NCBI GenBank assembly: GCA_024278375.1
Contig: JAJRTH010000093.1
Coordinates: 1 to 62,906, forward strand
Direction: 5' to 3'
Length of the DNA: 62,906 nucleotides
From: an archaeon
GTDB lineage: Archaea > Thermoplasmatota > Thermoplasmata > WALJ01
Each line of letters begins with the position of its first letter. Position 1 is the first letter of the stretch. This document shows positions 6,767 through 53,906 of this stretch, piece after piece. The notes under the pieces were generated by a model, which made no database searches, was not told the DNA's origin, and worked only from the letters and a program-made list of their open reading frames with translations. Made by a program: the position numbers and the translations under genes.

Positions 6767-7108
6767 TTATATCTCTTCTATCGTGTTTTTCATATAGCTT
6801 ATTATCTCTTCTTCTTTGTTCTGTGTGTTTACTGCAGCCACCAGGATTCCTTTCATACCCCCCGAGACTATGAATATCTTTATTCCTCCCGTTTCGACGA
6901 CCACGTATTCGGGGTTCGGCTGTCCGAGTTCCGTAGCTGCCGTTCCGGCCGCACCCAGAACGGTCGCACACATTATGCTGAAGGTCTCTGGATATGCACC
7001 CTCCAGCACCTCGAGATATTTCGGCATTCCGTCCCTGGTAATGAATCCCGCTGCAATGACGGGAAATTTCTTTTTCATATCTTCTATTATATTATTTATT
7101 TCAGCCAT
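6767..7108 (-). CDS. Roadblock/LC7 (MglB-like) domain protein
   Basis: 113-aa ORF with the Roadblock pattern 'GFITRDGMP...ETGGIKIFIVSGG'. Confidence 0.7.
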   Translation of the reverse strand: MAEINNIIEDMKKKFPVIAAGFITRDGMPKYLEVLEGAYPETFSIMCATVLGAAGTAATELGQPNPEYVVVETGGIKIFIVSGGMKGILVAAVNTQNKEEEIISYMKNTIEEI

Positions 7109-7114
7109 GTTCTC

Positions 7115-7546
7115 TCACACTCCTTTCCTCTCTAACCTGAACACGCAGTTCTCATCTCCCTTGCTCTCACACTCTATTTCCTCGCAGTTGAAACCGTCAT
7201 TGTAATAGTTTTCATATACTCTCTTTATGATGCCTTTCAGGAGATGACAGCTCTGCGCTCCCTTTCCTTCCTCAACCTCTATTGAGCCGCTTACAACGGC
7301 TTTGTTCTCGGAGAACAGGACCTTCTCGGCCCAACCTCTTCCCGCCAGGAGATTTGCCGCCACTTCAAAGTATTTCTCCTTTTCTCCTTCCGAGCTTTTC
7401 ATCGCTATCTCTGCAATATTGTCCCCGAGAACCTCTCCTTCTCTGAAAAAGAGACCGTGACACGCATAGGACATCACACTCTCGTATATCTTCCGTATGT
7501 CGAGAAGCTCGTCTCTGGAAATCCTTATGGTACGAATCGGCATCAA
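7115..7546 (-). CDS. V4R domain protein
   Basis: 143-aa ORF. C-terminal 'CHLLKGIIKRV...EEIECESKGDENCVFRL' matches the V4R (4-vinyl reductase) cysteine pattern. Lies immediately upstream of the Roadblock gene. Confidence 0.6.
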   Translation of the reverse strand: MMPIRTIRISRDELLDIRKIYESVMSYACHGLFFREGEVLGDNIAEIAMKSSEGEKEKYFEVAANLLAGRGWAEKVLFSENKAVVSGSIEVEEGKGAQSCHLLKGIIKRVYENYYNDGFNCEEIECESKGDENCVFRLERKGV

Positions 7547-7754
7547 AACCTGTATGGACTGGATGTTTATAAAGTTTCCTTATTGGCGGACAATCTTTAC
7601 TGATTCAAGGACTTTTAGAAAATTAGTATTGTCAAAAGAAATCTTTATCTTCATTGATTGATCTGTGTTTCGAAGCCAAGGTTCTGACCCTGGAGACCCT
7701 CTGCGGAACAAAAGCGCGGGAAAATCAGGAGGGCAGTCGCACCTTCTTTCCTTT

Positions 7755-8657
7755 TTACGCCACAAGAACGACCCTACTAGGCCTGTACTCCATAACGACT
7801 TCCCTTCCGGTATGCCCTGCAATCTTTTGCCCGAATTCCCTTATCTCCTCGTGAGAAGGCATGTTGTCCATCGTCATCCTTTCCCTCGAGTAGCCAACGA
7901 AGACGTAGCCTTTTGCCTATATGAAATCTGGGTCCGCTTTCTCGATGAGCTTCGCATATTCTTTTTCGTGGCCTTCCATATTCCAACCTTTTACCAGAGT
8001 ATGCCTTACGACCGTCCTGGTATCGAGCGAAGGGAGGAGTCCAAGGGTCTCGTTAAGTCTTTCCCACCCATCGCTTATCATGGGAACTAGGAGCCGATTG
8101 TAGAGGTCCTCGTTGGGCGCCGCGACGGTGACATAAAGCTGTGTCGGTAGGGGGTCGAGGTTCTCTATGGCCTTCGGGAGGGTTCCGTTGGTGACCAGGA
8201 AGGTCGTCATGCCTCTTCTGTGGGCCAGTTCTATGAACTCCCCGAGTCTGGGATAGAGGGTCGGCTCTCCGCTGAGGGATATGGCTATCTGGCTCGGCTC
8301 GTAGGCCTCATCGAACATCTCTCTCTTCACCCTCGAGTCTCCTTTGAATCCCGAAATCAGTTCTCTCTGCGCTCCGATTAGCCCATCCAGTATGAATTCA
8401 GGGTCGTCGACCTTTTTGAGGGCGGTTTCCGTGAACGCCTGAAATCTCCAGCAGAAAAGGCAGTTCTGTGTGCACTGATTTACGGCGGGAGACATCTGAA
8501 GGCATCTGTGAGACTGTATCTCGTAGAATACCTCCTTGTAGCACGGCCGTCCCCTGACCAGCTTCTCTTTAAGCCAGTGACACAGTTTGACGCCGCTGTG
8601 CCCACCTACGATTCTGTAGTGCTGTTTTTCCAGTATCCTTTTGAGCTCGGGCTCCAT
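7755..8657 (-). CDS. taw1: tRNA 4-demethylwyosine synthase Taw1/TYW1 (radical SAM), interrupted by one in-frame TAG at 7917-7919
   Basis: The track ORF 7917-8657 carries the radical-SAM cluster 'CTQNCLFCWR'. The same frame continues after TAG as 'AKGYVFVGYSRERMTMDNMPSHEEIREFGQK...' to TAA at 7755-7757. The total of 300 codons matches the usual Taw1 length. Confidence 0.8.
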
Positions 8658-8666
8658 CGTATCCTC

Positions 8667-9431
8667 CTACATCTCCGGGTATTTGCCGTTTTTCATGAAC
8701 TGCAGACTCCTTATTCCGTCATCGATTCCTCTGTCCATCTCGAGGACGAGATTTCCTCCGTATCCTCCGAGAGCATTCAGCAGCCTGTCCCAGTCTATGG
8801 TCCCTTCACCAAGGGGAAGGTGCAGGTCCGCCTTTCCGTCATTGTCGTGTAAATGCACGTTTCCGAACATTCTCCTGTGTTCCAGAAATGCCTCCATGGT
8901 GCCCGTCGTGTTGGCGTGTCCCGCATCAAAGCACCACTTTATCTCCAGACCTTCGGTCATCTCCACAATATCTTCCGGCCGCTTGCCGACGGTTATGAAT
9001 GTATCCGGCATGTTCTCCAGAGCAAGGATTATTCCATTGTCCAGAGCGTGTTTCTCAAGGATTTCAAGGCTCTTTTTCGTCTCTTCCCTGACTCTTGGAG
9101 GATCCCTTAAAAGAGGCGTTTTAAAACCGGGATGGATGGTCATGATCTTCACTCCCAATCTTCCCGCGGACTCGATGGCCTTTATTATCTCGTTAAGAGC
9201 GCTCTCCCTCATGAATGGATTTCCTCCCGCGATGTTTATGTCGCTGAGAGGTGCGTGTACCTGTATCTCAAGAGGGCGAGATTCCAGGGCCTCCGCGAGC
9301 TTCTTTTCAATGCCCGGAAGATACAAAGTTCCCTCCGCGGTTATCTCCCATCCTTCGAAGTTCCTCTCTACGAGTTCGAAGACCCTCTCGAAGGGCATGT
9401 TGCAGAACGATGCGCTCGATATCATTATCAT
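8667..9431 (-). CDS. sugar phosphate isomerase/epimerase (xylose isomerase-like TIM barrel)
   Basis: 254-aa ORF. 'HLHDNDGKADLHLPLGEGTIDW' and 'ALENMP' blocks of the AP_endonuc_2/TIM-barrel family. TAG stop. Confidence 0.7.
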   Translation of the reverse strand: MIMISSASFCNMPFERVFELVERNFEGWEITAEGTLYLPGIEKKLAEALESRPLEIQVHAPLSDINIAGGNPFMRESALNEIIKAIESAGRLGVKIMTIHPGFKTPLLRDPPRVREETKKSLEILEKHALDNGIILALENMPDTFITVGKRPEDIVEMTEGLEIKWCFDAGHANTTGTMEAFLEHRRMFGNVHLHDNDGKADLHLPLGEGTIDWDRLLNALGGYGGNLVLEMDRGIDDGIRSLQFMKNGKYPEM

Positions 9432-9809
9432 TCATTCACCTGTGAAGGTCAGCCAGTGGATGAGCTTTGTCGGGTTCTCATCCCTGATTTCTATACCTAT
9501 TTCGCCCAAAGCCGGATTGGTGCCTCCCAGAGATATCTTTCCCATGAATGCGGCCTGCTTGCTTATGCTGAACTTTATCCTGTCTCCCTCAATCTTTCCC
9601 ATGAGAAAGTGCCTTGCGGTGTCCCTTATCCTGAGGTCCCTCAGTATCTCCTGAAATCTGTCCAGGGTGTGTGTCCTCGCCACTATCTTTCCATCCGATT
9701 TTTCGATATCCGCATCCGGAAATATGTTCAGCACAGCCTTTCTCACCTTTTCATCGTCTTCCGTGTTGTGGACCTCTGCTTCTATGCTAACTTCCATGGG
9801 GGTGCGCAT
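9432..9809 (-). CDS. UPF0201 family (COG1931) putative RNA-binding protein
   Basis: Start moved to an internal ATG ('MRTPMEVSIEAEVHNTEDDEKV'); ATG at 9797 is also possible. The upstream 50 codons of the track ORF look non-coding. Confidence 0.55.
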   Translation of the reverse strand: MRTPMEVSIEAEVHNTEDDEKVRKAVLNIFPDADIEKSDGKIVARTHTLDRFQEILRDLRIRDTARHFLMGKIEGDRIKFSISKQAAFMGKISLGGTNPALGEIGIEIRDENPTKLIHWLTFTGE

Positions 9810-9845
9810 CCGTATCCTTATTTTAATCTTCCGTGTCGCAAAACC

Positions 9846-9854
9846 TATTTTATA
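9846..9854. promoter_or_regulatory. TATA-box-like element in the divergent intergenic region
   Basis: 'TATTTTATA' lies between the UPF0201 gene (minus strand) and the M20 peptidase gene (plus strand), about 27-35 nt upstream of the TTG at 9881. Confidence 0.35.
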
Positions 9855-9880
9855 CCCGCCGATTTCCGCACGGTGATTTC

Positions 9881-11101
9881 TTGAATCTCTCCGAAACGGT
9901 CGAATCTCTGAAGGATGAAATGGTAAAGGCGATGGTGGAGATGCTGAGAATAGAGGCAATAAGCCCGGAATCTGGGGGGAAGGGGGAGCTAAAAAGGGCC
10001 GAGTTCCTTGAGAAATGGATGTCTGGATTCGGTTTCGACGAGATAAAGAGATGCGATGCGGAGGACTCCAGAGCGGAGGGAGAGGTCAGGCCGAACATAA
10101 TCGCCACGATATACGGGAAGAACAGAGAGCGCACAATCTGGGTGATAAGTCACATGGACACCGTTCCCGTGGGGGACATCTCCAAATGGGAAACCGACCC
10201 GTTCGACCCCGTAGTCAGGGACGGGAAAATATACGGCAGGGGAGCGGAGGACAACGGACAGTCCCTGATAGCGTCCATGTACGCTGCAAAGGCTATAATC
10301 GATTCCGGAATGAAACCGGATTACAATTTCTCTGTGGCGTTTGTCTCGGACGAGGAGACTGGAAGCAAGTACGGGATACAGCACCTTGTGAAGCTCGGAC
10401 TCTTCAAAAAGGACGACCTCGTGGTGGTTCCTGATCACGGTGTGCCGGAGGGAAATGAGATAGAGATAGCCGAGAAATCTATTTACTGGGTCAAAGTTAC
10501 GACATACGGAAAACAGACGCATTCCAGCATACCACATACGGGAATCAATGCGCTCCGTGCCGGCTCCAGATATCTCGTTGAGGTTGATAGAGCCCTACAC
10601 GAAAGGTTCTCCGAAAGGAATGAGCTGTTCAGTCCGCCTATATCCACCTTCGAGCCTACGAAAAAGGAGGAAAATCAGCCCAACATAAACGCCGTTCCCG
10701 GTGAGGATGTTTTCTACTTCGATATGCGCATAATACCGGAGCACAATATAGCCGACATAATGGGTCTGATGAACGAGGTCGCCGAAAGGGTTTCGAAGGA
10801 GACCGGCGCCAGGATAGTCCCGGAGGTTTACAGGGGAGAGCAATCGCCACCGCCTACACCCCCCGATTCCGAGGTTGTGATGAGGCTGAGCAGGGCCATA
10901 GAAAAGGTTAGAGAGATAAAGCCCAAATTGGTCGGCATAGGTGGGGGAACCTGTGCGGCATACATAAGGCAGGCCGGAATCCCTGCGGCGGTGTGGAGCA
11001 CGATAGATGAGACCATGCATCAGGCTAACGAGTACTGCAAGATAGAGAACCTGGTTAACGATGCGAAGGTGTTTGCGCTCCTCGGGTTTCGGCAGATCTG
11101 A
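9881..11101 (+). CDS. M20 family metallopeptidase (ArgE/DapE-like)
   Basis: 'ISHMDTVPVGD', 'GRGAEDNGQSL' and 'VSDEETGS' metal-ligand motifs. Start moved from the GTG at 9833 to the in-frame TTG at 9881, because a TATA-like box lies inside the longer ORF. Confidence 0.75.
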   Translation: MNLSETVESLKDEMVKAMVEMLRIEAISPESGGKGELKRAEFLEKWMSGFGFDEIKRCDAEDSRAEGEVRPNIIATIYGKNRERTIWVISHMDTVPVGDISKWETDPFDPVVRDGKIYGRGAEDNGQSLIASMYAAKAIIDSGMKPDYNFSVAFVSDEETGSKYGIQHLVKLGLFKKDDLVVVPDHGVPEGNEIEIAEKSIYWVKVTTYGKQTHSSIPHTGINALRAGSRYLVEVDRALHERFSERNELFSPPISTFEPTKKEENQPNINAVPGEDVFYFDMRIIPEHNIADIMGLMNEVAERVSKETGARIVPEVYRGEQSPPPTPPDSEVVMRLSRAIEKVREIKPKLVGIGGGTCAAYIRQAGIPAAVWSTIDETMHQANEYCKIENLVNDAKVFALLGFRQI

Positions 11102-11136
11102 GGGAAATTTTTTTAAACCGTAGCGGATGCATCGCC

Positions 11137-11799
11137 ATGGCAAGAAGAAGGCACGAGAAGGAAGAAGAGGAGGAGAAAGAGGTCTTCACTCCTCCGGAGT
11201 TCGACGAAAAGGAGTATATACACAAGGAGGTCAACAAATCAAAAGCCAGCATAGCGATAGTCTTTCTCGGTCTGATTTTTGCCGTGCTGTCCACCGTTGT
11301 TTTTCTCAGCACCCTCTCATGGGCTTACGGCGCTCTGATTGGCCTTTCCGGCTTCTTTTTCTTCAAGTTCGTATACCCTCTGTTCAGGGTCGATGTTTTC
11401 ATTCTGGAAAAGAAGGACTATCTCGCACATGGCTTCGTCTATCTCTTCACATGGCTTGCAATCTTCATACTCTGCATAAACATGCCGTTCGCAGACCTTA
11501 CCGGCCCTTCGATATATGACGTGCATCTCCAGGGATATCACAACGATACATGGCTGCCCTACAACACCACCGGAGATTTCTCGGCCTACAGGATAGTCGC
11601 CACCGTGACCGACAACTCCGACATAGTCTCCGTTGAAATCAGGGAGTTCAACAACGACAGCTGGGCTGAGATGGAGAAACTGGACGATATCAGATATTAC
11701 TTCTCGGTGCCGTCTCCGCCGGAAACTTCCATGAAGTACTACATAAAGGCCACAGACGCCAACGGACACGAGACCACCATATCCTGGAAAATGGCCTGA
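11137..11799 (+). CDS. membrane protein with C-terminal beta-rich domain, unknown function
   Basis: 220-aa ORF with an acidic N-terminus, about 3 hydrophobic helices, and a C-terminal Ig-like-looking segment. Confidence 0.4.
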   Translation: MARRRHEKEEEEEKEVFTPPEFDEKEYIHKEVNKSKASIAIVFLGLIFAVLSTVVFLSTLSWAYGALIGLSGFFFFKFVYPLFRVDVFILEKKDYLAHGFVYLFTWLAIFILCINMPFADLTGPSIYDVHLQGYHNDTWLPYNTTGDFSAYRIVATVTDNSDIVSVEIREFNNDSWAEMEKLDDIRYYFSVPSPPETSMKYYIKATDANGHETTISWKMA

Positions 11800-11841
11800 T
11801 CTGGCCAGAAAAGTATAAATTTATGTTGAAGATGACGCTCT

Positions 11842-12138
11842 ATGCCAACAGAAGAAGAGATTATGGAAGCTCTTAAAGAGGTCTATGACCCGGAGATAGG
11901 GCTGAATGTGGTCGAGCTCGGGCTCATATATGGTGTTAAAGTCGAAGGAAAGAAGGTAAAGGTAACCATGACCCTGACCGTCCCCGGCTGTCCCCTCGCA
12001 CAGACTATAACAGAGTATGTGGGCAGGAGAATCCATCAGATGGAAGATGTGGAAGATGTGGATGTCGAACTTACCTTCGACCCGCCATGGAGCTTGGAAA
12101 GGATGACTCCGGAAGCGAGGAAGAAGATAGGACTGTAA
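11842..12138 (+). CDS. Fe-S cluster assembly protein, DUF59/MIP18 (SufT-like)
   Basis: 98-aa ORF. 'EVYDPEIGLNVVELGLIY...TLTVPGCPL' is the canonical DUF59 signature. Confidence 0.75.
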   Translation: MPTEEEIMEALKEVYDPEIGLNVVELGLIYGVKVEGKKVKVTMTLTVPGCPLAQTITEYVGRRIHQMEDVEDVDVELTFDPPWSLERMTPEARKKIGL

Positions 12139-12168
12139 GTTTTATATTCCCTATTTCCATCCTGTTCC

Positions 12169-12684
12169 ATGCCTGAATTCGTGGACGAGGACCTGAAAGT
12201 AGAAGCCGCTCTCTTTTCCGCAGGTAAGCCTCTGAGCATCGCCGAGATAGAAAGAATAACCGGCGTAGGAAGGAGAAAGGTTAGAAAGGCTCTAGATTTT
12301 CTGATGGAGGAGTATGCTTCGAGGGATACGGCCATAGAGATAGTCAAGATAGGCAACAAGTACTCCATGCAGCTGAAGGAGAAATATGCGGGCATAGCAA
12401 TGGAGGTCGTTCCGATGGAGCTTCCCAAGGAGGTTCTCAAGACCGCTGCGCTCATAGGCTATCATCAGCCGGTCAAGCAGGCGATGCTGGAGGAAATGGT
12501 GGGATCAAGGGTGCTGGAGCACATAAAAATCCTCGAGGATATGGGTCTGATAAAGAAAAAAAGGGAAGGGAGATATATGGTCGTCCACATCACGCCGAAG
12601 TTTGCGGAGTACTTCGGGCTGGAAGGTGCGAAACCCGAGGACATAAAGAGAATACTGGCTGAGAGGGCTGGACTAGATGGGTAG
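12169..12684 (+). CDS. scpB: segregation and condensation protein B
   Basis: 171-aa ORF with an 'EAALFSAGKPLSIAEI' winged-helix N-terminus typical of ScpB. TAG stop. Confidence 0.7.
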   Translation: MPEFVDEDLKVEAALFSAGKPLSIAEIERITGVGRRKVRKALDFLMEEYASRDTAIEIVKIGNKYSMQLKEKYAGIAMEVVPMELPKEVLKTAALIGYHQPVKQAMLEEMVGSRVLEHIKILEDMGLIKKKREGRYMVVHITPKFAEYFGLEGAKPEDIKRILAERAGLDG

Positions 12685-13267
12685 GCTTCCGGAGAACGGA
12701 GTTGCCTATGAGACGATAGTCATCACGGAAAACAGACATACGAATGCCACAGCGCTCTCCGCAACCAGAAAAGGCGAGCACATACTCCTGCGCTCCTTCA
12801 AAGGCTCCAACACCTTCGAGAACCTGAGAAAAACGGAAAAATTCTCGGTAAATTACATCTCTTCGGAAAACAAGGAGGCGTTCATAAAGGCCGCCGTGAA
12901 GGGCTGGGGGGACGAGGAAAGAGAATTCTCAGATGAGGAAATATCCAAGAGATACGGGTTTCCTGTCCTGAAGATCGCCTCGGGTGTTGCTATATGCACT
13001 GTTGAAGACAGAGAGCTTGAAAGGGTGGAGGACGAGATAGGAGAAACCGAGGTTCTGAAGGTCAGAGGAAGAATTGTGCTCTGGGAAGGGGGCGCGGAGA
13101 ATGCCATAAAAGTGGGTGAGGACAGGAACATAATGGCTCTTGTCGCATACACGAGATACCTTATATCTGAGGGAGAAGTGAGGGGAAAGTACCGGAAAAG
13201 AGCCATGGAGTTGGCAGATGATAGGGATGTGGTGGGAAAGTGGGTGATTAGAAACCTACAGCCCTAA
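12677..13267 (+). CDS. DUF447-like split-barrel protein
   Basis: 196-aa ORF whose ATG overlaps the scpB stop. The call rests on overall resemblance to archaeal DUF447 proteins and is tentative. Confidence 0.4.
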   Translation: MGRLPENGVAYETIVITENRHTNATALSATRKGEHILLRSFKGSNTFENLRKTEKFSVNYISSENKEAFIKAAVKGWGDEEREFSDEEISKRYGFPVLKIASGVAICTVEDRELERVEDEIGETEVLKVRGRIVLWEGGAENAIKVGEDRNIMALVAYTRYLISEGEVRGKYRKRAMELADDRDVVGKWVIRNLQP

Positions 13268-13291
13268 TAGTGTACACTCTTTCTTTTTCTT

Positions 13292-14098
13292 TTACTTTTT
13301 AAAAACATGCCCACAATACGGGCAGAATTTTGAATTTAATGGTATTTTCTTTCCGCAATCTGGGCAAAGTTTGGCTACCGCTTTTTTCTTTTTGGTTTTA
13401 GATTCTTTTCTTTTTTCTGTAACAAAGTCTGTGGTATCATCTTCCATATTTTCATCGCCGGTCATAAAGTCCTCTGTTTCATACTCCTCGAACTCTTCTT
13501 CAGGGATTGTTAAATCAATGTCAAAATCGTCATAGTGTTCGTTTGTATTTTGCTCAAAATTCTTATATGTTTGTGGAATTACTTTCATATGAACCTTGTT
13601 TTTAGGTTTATTTGATACAACATAAGAATTTTTATATCTGATTTCTTTTATCTCTCTAAGTTCCTTTTCTCTTCGGTAATCTTCTCTCATTTTTCTATGA
13701 AGTGCTTCTCTTTCTTCTTTATTATTAATTATATCTATATAAATAGATATAACTATCGATAAAATGAATCCTAGAGATACTATACTTGGTCCAACACCTA
13801 TTATCCATTCTAAAGAGTCTGGAATATTTTGTTTTATAGATAAAATTATATTTCCATTAATATATAGTCCTATTATAGAAACTATTATGCAAAAACTAAC
13901 CCTTTTTATTTGGACTGTGAATAATAACATTAACGCTAGTATAACTATCACTAAATATGCAATAGCGCCTATGTTATATTTCCAAATGAGATCTATACCA
14001 TTCACAGAGTACATTTCTGGAATTACAAACCATGGTAGAAACACCCCAAAAAGCGAAATTATGCTGCTAAACACACCTGCCAAGTATCTAGGTTTCAC
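13292..14098 (-). CDS. membrane protein with charged linker and C-terminal zinc ribbon
   Basis: 268-aa ORF in an AT-rich islet. About 4 TM helices, a Glu/Lys-rich linker, and a 'CPDCG...CPYCG' ribbon. Confidence 0.5.
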   Translation of the reverse strand: MKPRYLAGVFSSIISLFGVFLPWFVIPEMYSVNGIDLIWKYNIGAIAYLVIVILALMLLFTVQIKRVSFCIIVSIIGLYINGNIILSIKQNIPDSLEWIIGVGPSIVSLGFILSIVISIYIDIINNKEEREALHRKMREDYRREKELREIKEIRYKNSYVVSNKPKNKVHMKVIPQTYKNFEQNTNEHYDDFDIDLTIPEEEFEEYETEDFMTGDENMEDDTTDFVTEKRKESKTKKKKAVAKLCPDCGKKIPLNSKFCPYCGHVFKK

Positions 14099-14174
14099 AG
14101 AAGAGCATCGAATTCTTATATTTAGATTTTTCGTTATTTCTAGCAGTATTACAATTTACAAATCACCTAGAATC

Positions 14175-14771
14175 TTATATCGAGAGAAACACCGATATCA
14201 GCACAGGCACAGCCATGCTCAGCACAGAGCCGTTGTAAAGCCCCCACAAAATCGCCTCCTTTCCCGAGAATCTGGTTATCAATGGCAGTGTGGTGTCCAT
14301 AGCGGTGGCTCCTCCCATCGCTATGGAAACCTCCGAGGGGGCGCGCTCTCCGATGAGCGGCACCGTGAGATAGGTCATTATCTCCCTGCCTATGTTTGAG
14401 AGGAAACCGAGAGCGCCGTAAATCGGTGACACAACTGATATCATGGGGCCTGCGAGGGAATACCAGCCGAGGCCTCCGGCAACAGCGAGGGAGAATTTCA
14501 GCGGGACTCCTGTCACTGCGCCTGCGGCAATCCCACCCAGGAGCGCCCCCGATATGGAAAACACAGGCAACAGCAGCGGCGATTTCCTTCCGCTCTTAAG
14601 GGCCTTCTTTATCGGTTCCGGATTGTATCCAACCGCAATTCCTATGAGAAGCATCAGGATGTAGAGGAATGCCATGCCGGATTGTGAGTAAAACAGAGAA
14701 TGCTCCGGCAGGAGATATCCGACTAAAATGCCCGAGAGCAGCGCTCCCCCCGTATACCTAATCACGGGCAA
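14175..14771 (-). CDS. LysO/DUF340 family membrane protein (large part)
   Basis: 198-aa polytopic ORF with TTG start. Overlaps the upstream small DUF340-like ORF by 14 nt. Confidence 0.5.
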   Translation of the reverse strand: MPVIRYTGGALLSGILVGYLLPEHSLFYSQSGMAFLYILMLLIGIAVGYNPEPIKKALKSGRKSPLLLPVFSISGALLGGIAAGAVTGVPLKFSLAVAGGLGWYSLAGPMISVVSPIYGALGFLSNIGREIMTYLTVPLIGERAPSEVSIAMGGATAMDTTLPLITRFSGKEAILWGLYNGSVLSMAVPVLISVFLSI

Positions 14772-15021
14772 GCCTCCTGAGAATCACAGCTCCCAGAATG
14801 GAGCCGAGAACAGTGAGAACCGCAAAAATCACCGACTGATAACCTATCAGAAGAGCACTGCCCCTAACGCCGGGGCTTGCGCCTATGGATGCACCCATGA
14901 AGAATATCAGAAGAATAAGAGGCAGTGTTATGGAGCGCTCGTCTCTGAATTTCACGCCCGTTTTCCTGAGGAGAGCTCCGAGAAGAGCGCCGAACAGAAG
15001 CGTAAGAACCAGATAAAGCAT
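14758..15021 (-). CDS. LysO/DUF340 family membrane protein (small part)
   Basis: 87-aa ORF with 3 TM helices. TAG stop. Arrangement is typical of split archaeal DUF340 pairs. Confidence 0.45.
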   Translation of the reverse strand: MLYLVLTLLFGALLGALLRKTGVKFRDERSITLPLILLIFFMGASIGASPGVRGSALLIGYQSVIFAVLTVLGSILGAVILRRLARD

Positions 15022-15050
15022 GGGAGCGAATGAGCGAAGGTATTTTTCTT

Positions 15051-16298
15051 TTACCCGTAGAACCTCTCAGCCATCTCCCTCGCCCTCCTAATGGCCTCCT
15101 CCTCGCCGTCTATCCTCCTGTTCCTCATCAATGTCCTTCCGTCACAGATGACCGTGTCCACAGCGCTCCCATTGGCAGCATAGACCGCACTCGATTCCCA
15201 GTTATGCATCGGCGTCATCTCAGGAATGTCTGATCTTATGAGGATTATGTCCGCCAGATATCCTTCTTCTATCTTTCCGGCGTTGAACCCGAGGGCCTGA
15301 GTGCCCCATTCCGTTGCCATCTTTAGGGCCTCGTGGGCAGGCAGAGCCGTCGGGTCTCCGGATAATTTCTGCAAGAGCGCTGCCGTTTTCATCTCCTCGA
15401 GCATGTCGAGATTGTTGTTGCTCGCCGCTCCGTCTGTGCCTAAAACGGGTTTTATTCCGTGCTTCCTCATCCGGGAATAGGGCATTGCCCTACCAACAGC
15501 GAGCTTCATATTGGATGCCGGATTGTGCGAAGGCCAGACACCTCTTTTCGCGTAAATCTCAATGTCCCTGTCATCGAGCCATACGGAATGCGCGGCGATT
15601 ACATCGCTTCCCAGGAACCCCATGGAATCGAGGTATTTCACCGGGCTCATGCCATGCTGCTCAAATGAATCTTTTACCTCCTTTTCTGTCTCAGAGACAT
15701 GGGTATGGAGCCTGAGCCCTTTTTCTCTGGCAAATTCGGCGCTCCACTCCAATCCTTCTCTGGAAACGGTGTAGATGGCATGAGGGGCGACCGCTGCCTT
15801 TATTCTGGGATTGTTCATGGTTTCAACGAATCTCACGAATTTTTCCGTCTCCTTTATCTCGTTCTCCCTCTTTTCCTCATCGAAAAGGTCGATGAAACCG
15901 TAGCCGAGGAGAGCCCTTACTCCCGAATCCTGGACAGCCCTTGCGACATCCTCCATGAAGAAGTACATATCGTTGAAGGCCGTTGTTCCCGACTTTATCA
16001 TCTCGATTATGGCCAATCTTGTTCCCCAGTAGACCATCTCTCCGTCCAGTTTTGCCTCGGCGGGCCATATCCTGTTCTGAAGCCATTCATGGAGCGGCAT
16101 ATCATCCCCGTAACCTCTGAGAAGAGTCATCGCAGCATGGGTGTGGGTGTTCACCAGACCCGGCATGGCAATCGTATTCGCCCCGTCTATTACCTCATCC
16201 GCCTCCGTAATCCTTCCAATCTCTGAAATCCTGTTTTCTTCGATGTATATATGAGATTCCTTACCACCGAGGAGCGTGTTTTTTATCAAAATTGACAT
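15051..16298 (-). CDS. mtaD: 5'-methylthioadenosine/S-adenosylhomocysteine deaminase (amidohydrolase)
   Basis: 'GLVNTHTHAAMTLLRGYGDDMPLHEWL' and 'HVSETEKE' motifs. Start moved to 'MSILIKNT'. Confidence 0.8.
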   Translation of the reverse strand: MSILIKNTLLGGKESHIYIEENRISEIGRITEADEVIDGANTIAMPGLVNTHTHAAMTLLRGYGDDMPLHEWLQNRIWPAEAKLDGEMVYWGTRLAIIEMIKSGTTAFNDMYFFMEDVARAVQDSGVRALLGYGFIDLFDEEKRENEIKETEKFVRFVETMNNPRIKAAVAPHAIYTVSREGLEWSAEFAREKGLRLHTHVSETEKEVKDSFEQHGMSPVKYLDSMGFLGSDVIAAHSVWLDDRDIEIYAKRGVWPSHNPASNMKLAVGRAMPYSRMRKHGIKPVLGTDGAASNNNLDMLEEMKTAALLQKLSGDPTALPAHEALKMATEWGTQALGFNAGKIEEGYLADIILIRSDIPEMTPMHNWESSAVYAANGSAVDTVICDGRTLMRNRRIDGEEEAIRRAREMAERFYG

Positions 16299-24151: not shown

Positions 24152-24215
24152 GATAGAACATAGGGCCATATGTGATGCTAATTGATGGTTGTCTGGGTTC
24201 TCAGGAGGAAAAACG

Positions 24216-24845
24216 TTGTCAAGCAGATTGAGTGAGATATTCAAGGACGAGAAACTCGTAAACCGGATTAAAACGAAACTGCCTTATCTCTTTCAGCTTG
24301 CGGAGCTGGAAAGCTCTAGAGCTGGAAAGATAGGAATGGAAGTGGGCTCTCTAAGAGAGAGAATCCTCATAGCGCTCCTGATATACAAGTTCGGGGAGGC
24401 CAATGTGGAGATCCGGGCGATAACGGAACCGGAAGTCGATGTCTGGCTCTTTGGGAATCCGATTTCCATAAAGACGATAACCGGTAAGAGCCTCGGAGGT
24501 GTTAAACTAATATGGACCGTAGACGCACAGAAGGCTGCTGAGTTCAGAAGATATTATGTACCTTCGTGCGATATTCTGCTTGTTCGGATAAACTGGGGAG
24601 GCCTAGGTGGGTTTTACTACATCCCTCTAGAGGCCCAGAGGAAACTTCTCGAAGAGATAGGGAGAGAACGATATATCAAACTGCCCAAACCGGGGACAAA
24701 TCCGAGGGGAGTGGAGATAAGCAAAGAAGCCCTTAATGCTCTGGTAGATGATGGGCTCTCAGACTACATAGAGATAAGATGGGAGAAAAAAGAAATCGAT
24801 TATAATGCCTATAAAAGATGGGTGGAATACTGGGGGGAGGATTGA
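24216..24845 (+). CDS. putative type II restriction endonuclease (PD-(D/E)XK-like)
   Basis: Start moved to the TTG preceded by 'AGGAGG'. 'EPEVDVWLFGNPISIKT' fits an E/D...(S/E)xK nuclease core. Its stop lies immediately before the methyltransferase ATG (GAT TGA ATG). Confidence 0.5.
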   Translation: MSSRLSEIFKDEKLVNRIKTKLPYLFQLAELESSRAGKIGMEVGSLRERILIALLIYKFGEANVEIRAITEPEVDVWLFGNPISIKTITGKSLGGVKLIWTVDAQKAAEFRRYYVPSCDILLVRINWGGLGGFYYIPLEAQRKLLEEIGRERYIKLPKPGTNPRGVEISKEALNALVDDGLSDYIEIRWEKKEIDYNAYKRWVEYWGED

Positions 24846-25799
24846 ATGAAAAAGAATGGAAAGAGAAAAGGAACCGAAACCAGCAAATTCGGCGTTCCAG
24901 GCAGGATAAATCACGATTCCAGCAAGTTCTATTCGGGAAGGCTTTACGAGGGCCTGCCATCGGAAAAAAAGGTTGAGTACCATGAAAACGAGATTCCGGA
25001 AGAGAATCTGGACAGGATATTCTGCAAATCCAGCGAAAAAATGGAGGAATTGCCGGATGAGAGCGTGCATCTCATGGTAACTTCTCCGCCGTATAATGTT
25101 GGAAAGGAGTATGACGAGAATCTTACGCTTCAGGAATACAGGGATTTTCTGAAAAGAGTTTGGGCGGAAACATATAGGGCCCTAGTTCCTGGGGGAAGGG
25201 TTTGCATAAATGTAGCAAATCTTGGAAGGAGACCCTATATTCCTCTCAATTCTTTCATTATTCAGGATATGCTCGAACTGGGATTTCTCATGCGCGGGGA
25301 GATAATATGGGATAAAGGTTCGAGCGCCAGTCCATCCACGGCATGGGGGAGCTGGATGTCTGCCAAAAATCCGGTATTGAGGGATGTTCATGAGTACATC
25401 CTGGTGTTTTCAAAAGATACTTTCACCCGCGATAGTCTCAAATCATCCAGAAGCACCATTTCCAGGGAGGAATTTCTGGAGTTAACAAAAAGCGTATGGT
25501 CTTTTCCCGCTGTTTCGGCGAAGAAAATAGGGCATCCCGCACCCTTCCCTGTTGAGCTGCCCTACCGGTGCATACAGCTCTATACATTCAAAGAAGATGT
25601 GGTCCTCGACCCTTTCATGGGTAGCGGACAGACCGCAATAGCGGCCATAAAAACCGGAAGGCACTATATTGGTTATGAGATAAACGAGGAGTATGTGAGG
25701 AGCGCTCAAAAGAGGATCAGAGAATTTCTGATAGAGTTCAGATCGCCCAAACTAATAGATTACATAGATGGAAAAAACGATGCGAAAGAGGGGGTTTAG
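24846..25799 (+). CDS. DNA methyltransferase, N4-cytosine/N6-adenine beta class
   Basis: Catalytic 'TSPPYN' motif precedes the SAM-binding 'VLDPFMGSGQTAIAA' (beta-class order). TAG stop. Confidence 0.8.
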   Translation: MKKNGKRKGTETSKFGVPGRINHDSSKFYSGRLYEGLPSEKKVEYHENEIPEENLDRIFCKSSEKMEELPDESVHLMVTSPPYNVGKEYDENLTLQEYRDFLKRVWAETYRALVPGGRVCINVANLGRRPYIPLNSFIIQDMLELGFLMRGEIIWDKGSSASPSTAWGSWMSAKNPVLRDVHEYILVFSKDTFTRDSLKSSRSTISREEFLELTKSVWSFPAVSAKKIGHPAPFPVELPYRCIQLYTFKEDVVLDPFMGSGQTAIAAIKTGRHYIGYEINEEYVRSAQKRIREFLIEFRSPKLIDYIDGKNDAKEGV

Positions 25800-26905: not shown

Positions 26906-28402
26906 GTGAAGAGCGCTACACATCGAAGCACGAAAAGCCTGATTATAAAAGGGCTCAAGGACCTCTCCGAAAACAAGGAAGCGAGGAGAAAAGTGGATGA
27001 GAGTTATTTCAAGGAGCTGAAAGGCAAGGAACACTGGATGCTTTACCTGCTGATGTATGCCATTGACAATATGGAGAATGAGCTCTTCAGTGCCATTGAG
27101 GGACTTTCCAACGAGCAGAAGAGGTTCGAAGCCCAGACGTTCAAGGCCATAAAGGAGGAGAGAGAGGCACTTATAAAGGTTAGGAAATCCATAGAGAACA
27201 ACCTCAGAACATTCGAGGAGAAGATGGCGGAACTACTGGACAGACGCATGGCGGAGCAGAAAGAGGAGATTGCCAAGGAGTTAGAGAACCTCCTGGAAGG
27301 CACGCTGAACAAATCGCTCAGGGAAATCGACGAATCGATTTCCGATCTGTCCACAACAATCCAGAACATGTCCTCGGGATTTTCCGACACCTACAAACTG
27401 GTATCACACAATCAGAGCATGATTGCCAAGATCGGTAAAAAACTCGAGGAGATAAGCGAGGACATCTCCGCTCTCGACGAGAGGATCGGTATCGAAATAT
27501 CGAGAATACCGGGTGCGGAGGGCGCTGCAAAGGCCATGAAGGAGCTTGAAAGGAGCATCGAATCCATGAAGGCCATATCCGGAGATGTGGAAAAGATAAA
27601 AGCCGCTCTGGAAGGGCTTGAGGGGCTTGACAAAATATCACGGTTCTCGGATGTGGTGGAGGGGCTTGAAAAAGAGGTCGAAGAGGTCAAGAACGGGCTG
27701 GATTCCCTCAATTCCGTGATGTCCGAGAAAATCGCTGAGGCCATGAGGAGCGCGGGTGCATCGGCGGAACTCTAGAGAAGAATCAAGGAGTTGGGTGACA
27801 AGGTAGATTCCATAAACATAGACCGTATCTCCGAATCGTTGAAGGGGCTCGAAGGCCTCGATCAGATAGCCTCCCAGGTCGAGGATGTCAGGAAAAGGCT
27901 GGGATCTTTTGAGGAGCTGGGGGATTTCTACGGCGAAATAGACGATTTGAGAAAGAAACTGGAAAGCATAAAGACCATAGAGGACGAAGTTAAAAGAGAC
28001 ATGGACGTTCTGAGGAGGGTTGTCGGGGAATTCGAGGAGGTGGCCTCTCTGACCGAGATGCTGGGAGAGATGTCTTCCAGAGTCAAGAAAGTGGAAGAGT
28101 TCGGTGAAAAACTGAGTTCCATCGATATCCAAGGCCTTAAAGACAAAATCGAATCCGCCGGTATTGCTTCGTTCGACCCCGCTCTGATTGAGAAACTCGA
28201 TTCCATAGGCGCTCTAGCTGAAGAAATCGAGACCCTTAAACCGATAAAGAAAGAGGTTGCTTCCCTCCAGGAGAAGGTTATGGAGATAGAGAAAAAGGTG
28301 GATATGATACTGAAATCCACGAACAAACATCTTGATGTAGTGGAAAAGAACCTCAAAGCGGAGATTGCGAAGTTAAGGGGAGAGGGTGGTGGAAGTGGAT
28401 AG
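26906..28402 (+). CDS. long coiled-coil protein; two same-frame ORFs joined by a single in-frame TAG (27773-27775)
   Basis: ORFs 26906-27775 and 27791-28402 are in the same frame, with only TAG plus 5 sense codons between them ('...AGASAEL*RRIKELGDKVDSI...'). Both halves carry the motif L(E/K)GLEGLD(K/Q)I. The second half has only a TTG start, with no properly spaced SD. Confidence 0.55.
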
Positions 28403-30507: not shown

Positions 30508-31461
30508 TCAGTCCGTGATTCCCTCTTCCATTATTCTCAGGACAGCTTCGCCCTCGGGAAGGTTCGGTGAATCTATGAGTCTGGCGATTCTCTTGTCTCC
30601 CTTTGATTTTCTGAGATATACCCTGAACGTTGCTGTGTGTCCGACTATGTGCCCTCCTATCGGCCTTGTCGGATCCCCGAAGAAGGCATCCGGCTTTGCA
30701 GCGACTTGGTTGGTCACACATATGGCGGCATTGTTCAGCGTTGCGAACTTCAGGAGTTTGTGCATGTGCTGGTTCAATAGCTGCTGCCTTTCCGCAAGAG
30801 CACCTCTTCCGACATATTCCGCCCTGAAATGAGCGGTCAGGGAATCCACTATGACAAGCTTTATAGGCCTTTCCTTTGCAATCTCAAACAGTTTGTCCAC
30901 AAGAAGTATCTGATGACTTGAGTTGTATGCTCTGGCAACATGTATCTTCTAGAGCACGTCTTCCGGATTTATGTCTATACCCAGCCTCTTCGCAGTACCT
31001 TCCACCATCTGCACTATTCTTTCCGGTCTGAAGGTGTTCTCCGTATCTATCATGGCAACCTCTCCTTCCAGGCCCCCGTATTCCTTTGAGAGAGTGGTAT
31101 TCACGGCCAGCTGATGCATGACCTGCGTCTTTCCGGACCCGAACTCGCCGAAGAACTCGGTTATGGACTCTGTCTCGACGCCCCCACCCAGGAGGTCATC
31201 GAAGGCTTTCGAGCCCGTGGTAACCTTCCTTATCTCCTTCCTTCTCTCCATTATCTCGGTACCGCTCTCAAAATCTCCGATATCGGCGGCCCTTTTAGCC
31301 GCATTTATTATCTTCGCAGCTATCCCCTCTCCTATCTCTGCGATTTCCGCAAGATTTCTCGGGGATTCCACGGCTATTGCCATTATGCTGTCATATCCTG
31401 CGTCTTTGAGCTTCTCGGCGGTCGCAGGCCCCACGCCGGGTAATTTTTCTATTTCATCCAT
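30508..31461 (-). CDS. radA: DNA repair and recombination protein RadA, interrupted by one in-frame TAG at 30949-30951
   Basis: The N-terminal ORF (30949-31461) has the HhH domain and Walker A 'GEFGSGKTQ'. The same frame continues after TAG as '[49 protein letters not shown]...' to TGA at 30508. The total of 318 codons matches the usual RadA length. Confidence 0.9.
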
Positions 31462-47384: not shown

Positions 47385-48644
47385 TTAGAGGTCGACAAGC
47401 TCCTCGTAGTCGTACATCCTCGTGCCTTCCTTGAAGCAATAGTGTATTGCCTGGAAGTCCTCTTTGAAGGCCTTTACATCCTCTCCTACTTTCTTCGGGT
47501 CTTCCTTGTCTATGACCACACGCTTCATGAACTCCGCAACATCCTGCATGTCATTCTCTTTCATGCCTATCCTTGTGAGTTCCTGTGTACCTAGCCTTAA
47601 ACCGCTCGGATCGAGGGCCGTATTCACATCATCCCAGGGCAGGAGATTCTTGTTAACTATTATGTATGCCTCCTCCAAGGCCTCGGCCGCGAACTTTCCG
47701 CCCCCGTGCTCTCTTACATCAACGACCAGGGTGTGCGATTCGGTGAACCCTTTCTTCTCCGCAAGAACCTTGAATCCACGCTCGTAAAGGGCCTGACCCA
47801 GAGCCTTCGAATTCCTGACTATCTGCTCGGCGTACCTCTCGCCGAACTGAATGTGCTCGGCCAGGGCAACTCCCAGCGCGGCCATCGCATTCAGGTGGTG
47901 GTTGCTAAGAACTCCGGGGAAAACGCCGTATATCAGTTTTCTCTCCGTTTTCTCATCCCGGGGATTGGCGACAATCATGCCGTGCTGCGGTCCCGGTAGG
48001 GTCTTGTGAGTGCTCATCGTCATCACTTCGACACCCTCTCTGAGAGGGTCCTGGAACTTTCCTCCCGCTATGAGACCTGCAACATGTGCGGCATCGTACC
48101 ATACATGGGATCCAACCTCTTCAAAAGCGTCCCGGAATTCCTTCAAAGGCGTGGGAAAGAGATAAACGGACTGGCCGAATAGAGCGAGCTTCGGCCTCAC
48201 TTCCTTTATCACCTTTATGGTTCCGTCTATGTCCAGGTTCATCTCCTCGACGTCAAAGGGATACTCTATTGGTTGAAGACCCCTAAGGCCGACAGCGCCG
48301 AACTTCGCACTACTTATATGCGCTCCAGCCGCAACTCCCGGCACAGTGATCATGTCTCCGGGCTTCGTAAGGGCAAAGAGGACACCCATGTTCGCATTGG
48401 TTCCCGAAACGGGCCTGACATCCGCATAATTCGCTCTGAAAAGTTTCTTAGCAAGTTCCTGAACCTTCAATTCTATCAGATCCACGAACTCGTTTCCCTG
48501 ATAATAGCGCTCTCCCGGAAGCCCTTCGGCATATCTGTTGTGCAGGTCCGTTACCATGAGTTCTCTCGCAAGAGGGCTCAGGAGATTCTCGGAAGCTATC
48601 ATCGGGATGGAATTTCTGAAGAGTTCCGTATGCTTTTTCGCCAT
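47385..48644 (-). CDS. glyA: serine hydroxymethyltransferase
   Basis: 419-aa ORF with PLP-lysine region 'MSTHKTLPGPQHG'. Confidence 0.9.
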   Translation of the reverse strand: MAKKHTELFRNSIPMIASENLLSPLARELMVTDLHNRYAEGLPGERYYQGNEFVDLIELKVQELAKKLFRANYADVRPVSGTNANMGVLFALTKPGDMITVPGVAAGAHISSAKFGAVGLRGLQPIEYPFDVEEMNLDIDGTIKVIKEVRPKLALFGQSVYLFPTPLKEFRDAFEEVGSHVWYDAAHVAGLIAGGKFQDPLREGVEVMTMSTHKTLPGPQHGMIVANPRDEKTERKLIYGVFPGVLSNHHLNAMAALGVALAEHIQFGERYAEQIVRNSKALGQALYERGFKVLAEKKGFTESHTLVVDVREHGGGKFAAEALEEAYIIVNKNLLPWDDVNTALDPSGLRLGTQELTRIGMKENDMQDVAEFMKRVVIDKEDPKKVGEDVKAFKEDFQAIHYCFKEGTRMYDYEELVDL

Positions 48645-48768
48645 TCTCTGATATACATAGATTCATCAAGCATCGTATCACCTTGAGACAGTATCCCAAA
48701 ACGGTTTAAAAGCCTTCGCACGAACAAAACAGGAAACGCACATCAAAAATATTAAGTGGTTTGGACAC

Positions 48769-53366: not shown

Positions 53367-53906
53367 TCATTCCACATTTATGTCTTCCATCACCAGGGGT
53401 GTCGGGGTGCCGACCGATTCCACGTTTATCTCTTCCATCACCAGAGGAATCAGCGGATTGCCAGCGGATTCCACATTTATGTCTTCCATCACCAGTATCA
53501 CAGGCACACCCACGGATTCCACATTTATGTCTTCCATCACCAGAGGAAGAAGGTCCTCGCATGCGAGCATCTCAAGTATGTCGGCCGCGCCTTCCACGGT
53601 TATCTCGTCCATAACGGATATCGTCACCCCGCCGGCGGACTCGATGGTAATTTCCTCCATAACCAATGGAATCAGGTCTTCCAGACCAAGTTCCTCCAGA
53701 ATATCCGCAACGGTCTCGACATTTATCTCTTCCATCACCAGGATAATCGTTCCGTCCGCGACTTCCACATTTATCTCTTCCATCACATCAGTGACGGGTA
53801 CCGAAGTTTCTTCGGCCATTCCTCTCTCCATCGGGACCATCCCCATGATGAGGACAAGTCCCAGCACAGCCATAGCATACGCTCCCACATTATTTCTTTT
53901 TTGCAT
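53367..53906 (-). CDS. secreted acidic protein built from 8 copies of the octapeptide VM[ED][ED]I[NT][VI]E
   Basis: 179-aa ORF with SD 'GGGAGG' 9 nt upstream and a signal-like N-terminus 'AYAMAVLGLVLIMGMV'. Repeats alternate with 8-9-aa and 17-aa spacers. The protein ends exactly on a repeat. Confidence 0.6.
   Translation of the reverse strand: MQKRNNVGAYAMAVLGLVLIMGMVPMERGMAEETSVPVTDVMEEINVEVADGTIILVMEEINVETVADILEELGLEDLIPLVMEEITIESAGGVTISVMDEITVEGAADILEMLACEDLLPLVMEDINVESVGVPVILVMEDINVESAGNPLIPLVMEEINVESVGTPTPLVMEDINVE
53370..53786 (-). repeat. in-frame tandem repeat array (about 48- and 75-nt periods) inside CDS 53367-53906
   Basis: Recurring 'TCCAC(A/G)TTTAT(G/C)TCTTCCATCACCAG'-type units are visible on the plus strand. 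Confidence 0.8.

Follow-up and report, generated by a model that had tools for sequence, protein, structure and literature searches.

In a 62,906-nucleotide (nt) contig from an archaeon of the Thermoplasmata (JAJRTH010000093.1, assembly GCA_024278375.1; this whole stretch is called the window here), taw1, the gene for the radical-SAM wyosine synthase Taw1/TYW1, is interrupted by an in-frame TAG at codon 247, where its homologues carry an invariant glutamate. Considered by itself, it is an amber lesion of the ordinary kind that happens to hit an invariant Glu. An earlier reading made from the DNA letters alone (the sequence-only reading) had allowed for a point lesion in taw1 considered by itself, and such an allele is what we weight highest: tentatively, we read the TAG as a recent, untranslated nonsense allele and taw1 as inactive. 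Two further in-frame TAGs, in radA and in a coiled-coil gene, form with it a cluster that keeps alive a less likely reading, in which UAG is decoded.

A TAG in place of an invariant glutamate in taw1

On the minus strand the gene runs from an ATG (8655-8657) through 246 sense codons to the TAG (7917-7919) and through 53 more sense codons to a TAA (7755-7757), just as the sequence-only reading had quoted it. We compared the locus with that of its closest relative, a contig from a sister species of the same genus (JAJRVK010000085.1, assembly GCA_024277315.1; L013), which is syntenic with window positions 7006-15491 and 92.6% identical across 6,240 nt with zero gaps, and whose Taw1 (P0262) shares 94% amino-acid identity with that of the window and has GAG at codon 247. 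The features of the locus are as follows:

7725..8657, minus strand: ancestral taw1 (TYW1) frame, 310 codons plus TGA (7725-7727), in ungapped, colinear alignment with the intact 310-residue Taw1 of L013
7917..7919, minus strand: TAG in frame as codon 247, in the opening part of PF08608 (Wyosine_form, residues 240-300)
7755..7757, minus strand: second premature stop, TAA, codon 301, which removes the last nine residues, KGKKVRLPS (7728-7754)
7758..7916, minus strand: the 53 codons after the TAG, AKGYVFVGYSRERM...PSRVVLVA, an intact, conserved C-terminal block that keeps all invariant residues
8520..8522, minus strand: codon 46, GAG (Glu) for an invariant Gly, five residues past Lys41 (leave-one-out conservation test)
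8451..8474, minus strand: radical-SAM motif CxxxCxxC (C62, C66, C69; CTQNCLFC), intact and invariant in the homologue alignment
8667..8669, minus strand: TAG ending the xylose-isomerase-like gene (8667-9431) upstream of taw1, whose PF01261 domain ends before this TAG

The identification as taw1 held up against profiles and structures. The TIGR03972 profile (rSAM_TYW1) gave the read-through protein 392.7 bits, above the cut-off of 317.95, over profile positions 2-296 of 297, and the structure of P. horikoshii TYW1 (PDB 2yx0) spanned the TAG, covering residues 3-299 of read-through Taw1 with E = 1e-107; M. jannaschii TYW1 (2z2u, 6djt) aligned with the same protein at 1e-65. The 246-residue product scored 324.8 bits with TIGR03972, yet it covered profile positions 2-243 of 297 only. 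Pfam placed PF04055 (Radical_SAM) at residues 60-230 and PF08608 (Wyosine_form) at residues 240-300 of the read-through protein, and the block that the sequence-only reading had recognized beyond the TAG is this conserved C-terminal PF08608 part. The auxiliary-cluster residues Cys26, Cys39 and Cys52 are present together with Lys41, aligned with their counterparts in 2z2u and 6djt and likewise invariant in the homologue alignment; Lys41 (K41 of M. jannaschii) is the lysine that forms the pyruvate Schiff base in TYW1 (PMC7761594). By its sequence, the gene is a member of the Taw1/TYW1 family (TIGR03972) without an intact frame through PF08608, since the TAG at codon 247 falls inside the domain and a second stop follows at codon 301. 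The two halves around the TAG evidently belong to one Taw1/TYW1 protein, and an in-frame stop with family-specific conserved sequence on both sides is a real feature of the record and not chance. The 246-residue product is itself present in a public protein collection, from the window contig.

The residue replaced by the stop is Glu in all homologues. Aligning the protein with Taw1 orthologues, a check suggested by the sequence-only reading, gave Glu in the TAG column in 120/120 homologues, with conserved flanking columns (F, I/V, E, x, K), and the same Glu was found in 12 further cluster members (132 homologues in total) and in 3 PDB chains. A literature search on the role of this residue (E248 in M. 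jannaschii numbering, by our own count) found no paper. At the DNA level, the codon was GAG or GAA in 12/12 related copies, taken from four GTDB species and from JGI, Logan and NCBI contigs, in agreement with the ancestral GAG and single G-to-T step guessed beforehand. Since L013 and all related copies keep GAG or GAA, the TAG is younger than the split from L013 and represents a single G-to-T change, GAG to TAG, on the window branch.

The truncation recognized by the sequence-only reading stood, and the 300-codon gene that it proposed, ending at TAA 7755-7757, did not. This TAA is itself premature: at codon 301 L013 has GAG, followed by KGEKVRLHS and TGA, whereas the window has TAA, followed by KGKKVRLPS and a TGA at the same position (7725-7727). 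Because L013 reads on through codon 301 to the TGA that it shares with the window, the ancestral gene had 310 codons; Taw1 is 309-313 amino acids (aa) long in 17/17 close relatives, and the TAA at codon 301 is unique to the window. Among 95 highly conserved columns, window Taw1 deviates at two (G46E and E247stop), as compared with 0-1 in each of the 16 closest relatives; G46E is derived on the window branch, Gly being found at codon 46 in 132 homologues.

We then asked how selection has acted on either side of the TAG. In the 53 codons after the TAG, window and L013 differ by 4 non-synonymous and 18 synonymous changes, a ratio of non-synonymous to synonymous rates (dN/dS) of 0.035, as compared with 0.10 upstream of the TAG and 0.04-0.14 in the neighbouring genes, and the constraint after the TAG equals that in intact, more distant relatives. 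Because the post-TAG codons are still under purifying selection, the TAG is either very recent or translated. Relaxed selection on taw1 was considered and rejected, given 10 derived changes assigned to the window branch as against 8 to that of L013, a neighbour-like dN/dS and no clear acceleration. The idea that the TAG marks a recombination breakpoint or a chimeric join was likewise rejected: the TAG lies inside a divergent patch (~7106-8205) and not at its edge. Within taw1 the synonymous rate (dS) jumps from 0.23 to 0.94, and neither the window nor the L013 lineage is clearly recombinant.

Between window positions 7006 and 13245 the identity to L013 is a mosaic in which some patches reach 81-89% and others 95-99%, and these 6.2 kb contain no indel; this suggests frequent homologous recombination or a mixed-strain assembly.

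That the gene works as written, either because the 246-residue protein is active or because a C-terminal piece started at ATG 7875-7877 assembles with it as a split enzyme, seems to us extremely unlikely. A 40-codon open reading frame (ORF; 7755-7877) does begin 13 codons after the TAG, in conserved sequence. However, the truncated protein loses PF08608 (residues 240-300), a domain that each of the 132 homologues possesses, and a restart at Met261 also loses the invariant K249, V252-G255, R258 and R260; our searches returned no naturally split or equally short homologue of the family, close relatives being 305-344 aa long.

TAG as a terminator and the other in-frame TAGs of the window

Among ~73 ORFs called in the window, 19 end at TAG, comprising 3 internal cases and 16 natural gene ends. 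For 10 of these 16 we ran Pfam on the read-through products: the domains end before the TAG and the extensions match nothing. Reading through TAG would moreover create same-strand, out-of-frame overlaps of 71, 92 and 159 nt. At the taw1 locus itself, the upstream TAG at 8667-8669 precedes the taw1 ATG by 9 nt and shares its frame, and L013 has an identical TAG and spacing, which shows that TAG acts as a terminator right next to taw1. Read-through of this TAG would fuse the xylose-isomerase-like gene to taw1. L013 likewise uses TAG stops, and TAG and TAA are swapped in both directions between the two. TAG makes up 23-26% of the stops in the window, which resembles archaea without pyrrolysine (Pyl) rather than Pyl-positive archaea, because the median TAG shares of these are 22% and 5%, respectively (PMC12626013). 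The distance to the next backup stop is not shorter after TAG than after TAA or TGA. TAG is thus not globally reassigned in the window genome; a global reassignment of TAG, or one of TAA and TAG together to Glu, was rejected because most genes end naturally at TAA and TAG.

The two other internal cases are:

30949..30951, minus strand: in-frame TAG at codon 171 of radA (gene 30508-31461), spanned by PDB 1pzn with E = 1e-118
27773..27775, plus strand: in-frame TAG at codon 290 of a 498-codon coiled-coil gene (26906-28402), spanned by homologues of 463-495 aa

The radA TAG falls on a hypervariable column (K/Q/S/R/G/E/N/A), at which the relatives' codon is AGG or TCC, and window RadA deviates at 0/114 conserved columns. 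The TAG of the coiled-coil gene is also on a hypervariable column and corresponds to GAG in the nearest homologue (L022); this gene ends at another TAG (28400-28402), where its homologues end. In essentially all other window genes the Pfam domains are complete, and a screen by Pfam and called genes found no mid-gene interruption by TAA, TGA or frameshift in the window genes. The two non-TAG lesions in the window are each no more than 10 codons away from a gene end. One is the TAA at codon 301 of taw1; the other is in glyA (47385-48644, minus strand; product serine hydroxymethyltransferase), in which a 1-nt deletion in the A-run at 48644-48645 (one A missing from GAGAAATGG, window 48642-48673) throws the ancestral start (48671-48673), with the ten initial codons (MLDESMYIRE), out of frame, these being in frame in 5/5 relatives.

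Relatives were screened for interrupted genes among called genes only, which replaced an all-against-all tblastn that was too noisy and included non-coding frames. About 1 in 87 called genes was interrupted in the relatives, versus 3 in 73 in the window (Fisher p = 0.25). Lesions of other kinds do occur among these contigs. In a related species (L001 and L002, 4197-4586, minus strand), crcB, encoding a fluoride channel, carries a TGA in frame where VNxxGxF has its conserved Gly, seen in both JGI and NCBI assemblies that possibly stem from the same reads. The radA of one relative (P0281 and P0285, on one ENA contig of 5,034 nt) is called as fragments of 99 and 203 aa that seem to be separated by a frameshift in the Walker A region; a broken radA thus occurs in other metagenome contigs of the clade. 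Between two 99% identical contigs, L015 (584-1009) and L016 (567-902), a dinucleotide difference at the stop of a zinc-ribbon gene (TAG versus TGT) gives one of them a 30-residue extension into the start of radA.

A few other features of the window are recorded here. A LysO-family exporter (14175-15021, minus strand) is encoded as overlapping small (87 aa) and large (198 aa) ORFs, a layout that we do not count as a lesion because L013 has the same two genes. A gene for a ThaI-type restriction endonuclease (PF15514) is directly followed by one for an N4/N6 DNA methylase (24189-25799, plus strand); across the window GATC is three-fold under-represented (96 versus 288 expected) and CTAG is also low (46 versus 78). 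At 53367-53906 (minus strand) lies a 179-aa secreted-looking protein with repeated ...VMEEINVE... units and no Pfam match, and the opposite strand is open for ~207 codons, which is probably a side effect of the repeat.

Nonsense allele, UAG decoding or consensus error

In the reading that we favour, a lineage-specific, recent GAG-to-TAG substitution arose in a standard-code genome, in which TAG would be an ordinary untranslated stop. The taw1 gene would then yield a 246-residue protein retaining both Fe-S cluster motifs and Lys41 and lacking the entire C-terminal Wyosine_form domain; it would not be expected to make 4-demethylwyosine, and tRNA-Phe would remain at 1-methylguanosine 37 (m1G37), as in Haloferax volcanii. 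The reading presumes a genuine allele of the sampled population and no consensus error, a taw1 TAG that is not read through, and a truncated enzyme that, judged by what it lacks, is probably inactive. It fits the standard-code use of TAG, the invariance of the site, the presence of G46E and the TAA in the same gene, and the fact that some archaea do without wyosine: H. volcanii tolerates its loss and has m1G37 only (PMC7761594). It is further supported because the TAG is private to the window contig and because other kinds of lesion occur in the lineage (the glyA deletion, the relatives' crcB TGA and the radA frameshift). Moreover, since the Glu is invariant, a translated TAG would be counter-selected in taw1 unless Glu or Gln were inserted.

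Several observations weigh against a plain nonsense allele. Three interrupted genes among 73 is a high count, and they include radA, a gene that is seldom dispensable. All three TAG lesions look fresh, with fully conserved downstream sequence, and the window has no older decayed pseudogene, which is odd for steady-state gene decay. Genes are not split by mid-gene TAA, TGA or frameshifts, and the non-TAG lesions lie near gene ends, where they are tolerable. Selection looks efficient genome-wide (dN/dS 0.04-0.14), and there is no mutator-like excess of G-to-T changes. The reading leaves the coincidence of the taw1 TAG with those of radA and the coiled-coil gene only weakly explained.

This coincidence is what gives weight to amber suppression, that is, ambiguous decoding of UAG, a possible but rather doubtful alternative in our estimate. 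It holds that a UAG-reading tRNA lets some ribosomes read through, so that full-length Taw1, RadA and coiled-coil protein are made, while the release factor still terminates at many TAGs. The suppressor could be tRNA-Pyl with the pyl genes or a tRNA with a mutated anticodon (tRNA-Gln from CUG to CUA, or tRNA-Glu from CUC to CUA), and the latter would supply Gln or Glu where Taw1 has its invariant Glu. A single cause would then account for three in-frame TAGs in 63 kb, including that in radA, for the fact that every mid-gene interruption is a TAG and none a TAA, TGA or frameshift, and for the normal purifying selection downstream of each of them. TAGs on hypervariable columns, as in radA and the coiled-coil gene, are what is expected if they are translated under selection, and the ancestral GAG in taw1 together with the GAG in the nearest coiled-coil relative fits a suppressor that inserts Glu or Gln. 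Precedent exists as well: dual stop and sense use of UAG is documented in Methanosarcina acetivorans, Pyl-positive archaea reach 27% TAG stops, and the Pyl machinery is distributed sporadically through lateral transfer (PMC12626013; 10.1101/2024.09.30.615893).

However, no component of a suppression system was seen in the window. Neither pyl genes nor a tRNA-CUA were found in its 62.9 kb (ARAGORN and Rfam at permissive thresholds; Pfam on the genes), the sole tRNA type detected by ARAGORN and Rfam being tRNA-Gly; the related loci scanned contained no tRNA genes, and neither the window nor ~130 kb of related loci contained a methylamine methyltransferase (mtmB/mtbB/mttB). No stem-loop resembling the pyrrolysine insertion sequence (PYLIS) followed the internal TAGs, the folding of the 110 nt 3' of them giving z-scores of -0.98, +1.45 and +0.76 relative to shuffles. 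TAG is not depleted among the stops, no fewer than three read-throughs would run out of frame into neighbouring genes, and backup stops are no closer after TAG than after the other stops. Pyl at the invariant Glu would probably inactivate Taw1 anyway; since the site is invariant and not tolerant, a harmless recoded residue is disfavoured there unless it is Glu or Gln. Internal TAGs are absent from ~87 genes of the relatives, sister species included. The known Pyl users of the Thermoplasmatota are Methanomassiliicoccales methanogens (10.1101/2024.09.30.615893), whereas the window lineage belongs to another clade, which is associated with vents, and the one-carbon genes seen in the window are of the folate type. 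Suppression would require an undescribed state, with the TAG frequency of a Pyl-negative genome and a density of Category 1 genes (internal TAG between homologous halves) like that of recoded genomes.

The restriction of mid-gene stops to TAG is also statistically weak. Under random coding substitutions with the observed spectrum and the codon usage of the window, 2.4% create stops and 54% of these are TAG, so that three of three stop gains being TAG has p = 0.16. Two other sources of such a pattern were rejected. A G-to-T damage or mutator signature is not a general feature, window and L013 differing by 52 C>A/G>T changes versus 73 of the opposite kind. Nor do the TAGs mark a restriction or methylation motif: CTCTAGA is common to radA and the coiled-coil gene, the context in taw1 is different, and CTCGAG, CTCTAG and TCTAGA occur at expected frequencies in the window.

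The possible recoding implied by the sequence-only reading rests on the in-frame TAGs of radA and the coiled-coil gene, not on taw1. In its strongest form, a non-methanogenic hydrothermal-vent Thermoplasmata lineage would partly translate UAG while still terminating a quarter of its genes with it, by means of a laterally acquired Pyl system or of a Gln or Glu tRNA-CUA, as an early 'ambiguous intermediate' with TAG already in taw1 and radA; we regard this as unlikely.

We considered, finally, a consensus or assembly error, in which the true codon of the organism is GAG and one metagenome-assembled genome (MAG) contig is mistaken in its T at 7919, and likewise in its other in-frame TAGs, possibly because of low coverage or of per-site consensus across co-occurring strains. 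We sought independent copies by looking up the exact proteins and by scanning GTDB genomes and JGI metagenomes for the DNA in codon-degenerate form; no same-species copy was found in these scans, which returned other species only, all with GAG or GAA, and the truncated window products are singletons among ~15 billion proteins, occurring on the window contig only. Only one assembly contains the window sequences, every window protein that was checked being seen on this contig and no other. Errors would be 'infinitely recent', matching the intact downstream sequence, and the 81-99% identity mosaic may itself be a product of mixed-strain assembly or consensus, which at hypervariable codons (AGG, TCC or AAG in radA) could yield a chimeric TAG. 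Related metagenome contigs are visibly defective (the radA frameshift split and the 2-nt stop difference between 99% identical contigs), and the glyA defect is a change in homopolymer length. On the other hand, with 2.4% of substitutions giving stops, four stops imply an error rate of ~0.3%, far above that of short-read or HiFi consensus, and error-prone long reads leave many indels, yet ~70 genes keep their frame and the alignment of 6,240 nt with L013 has no gap; no common platform gives ~0.3% substitution errors with almost no indels. A chimeric codon cannot yield the taw1 TAG, the codon being GAG or GAA in all relatives, and G-to-T differences are not in excess. We consider such an error quite unlikely.

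Implications and comparison with known systems

Should the TAG be no more than a nonsense allele, the case is ordinary: one uncultured archaeon has probably lost the wyosine modification of its tRNA-Phe, and perhaps RadA too, and gene calls in this MAG contig, broken in several places, call for caution. If UAG is read through, the window would show a natural ambiguous intermediate of stop-codon reassignment outside the methanogens in which Pyl recoding is known, at a stage when stop-codon usage is still untouched, which would bear directly on how genetic codes change.

Compared with Genetic Code 34, in which all TAGs encode Pyl (Methanomethylophilus, Methanococcoides and others), the window shares internal TAGs in housekeeping genes. 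Such genomes have few or no TAG read-throughs overlapping neighbours and mostly ≤5% TAG, whereas the window has 16 natural TAG ends and at least three overlaps. By the terminator test for that code (Category 4, out-of-frame read-through overlaps >60 nt, plus TAG frequency), TAG is used as a terminator here, and the locus is not of the Code 34 class, whose defining feature is that TAG is not so used (10.1101/2024.09.30.615893).

Ambiguous Pyl decoding, as in Methanosarcina acetivorans (PMC12626013) and in Groups A and B of Kivenson et al. (10.1101/2024.09.30.615893), is closer, since it too places Category 1 genes, as taw1, radA and the coiled-coil gene are, beside TAG-terminated ones and needs no PYLIS-like structure. 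It differs in that the window shows neither Pyl machinery nor a methylamine methyltransferase, that its TAG use is not reduced, that the organism is not of a known Pyl lineage and that the taw1 TAG stands on an invariant Glu.

Suppressor tRNAs with mutated anticodons offer another likeness. They let TAG nonsense alleles persist in a standard-code genome and could place Gln or Glu at a former GAG, as supE, the suppressor tRNA-Gln CUA of E. coli, illustrates; we know of no natural archaeal example, and none was observed in the window.

An ordinary amber allele or young pseudogene is the nearest match to taw1 itself: a single-base change from GAG to TAG in an otherwise intact, conserved gene, private to one lineage and set in a genome that terminates genes with TAG. 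The difference lies in its surroundings, in which fresh TAGs occur in two more genes within 63 kb, radA included, without older decayed pseudogenes or mid-gene TAA, TGA or frameshift lesions. H. volcanii, which has m1G37 only, shows that archaeal life without Taw1 activity is possible (PMC7761594), and a loss-of-function allele of taw1 is therefore plausible. There, however, the absence of the pathway is a trait of the lineage, whereas the relatives of the window, including the sister species, keep an intact taw1.

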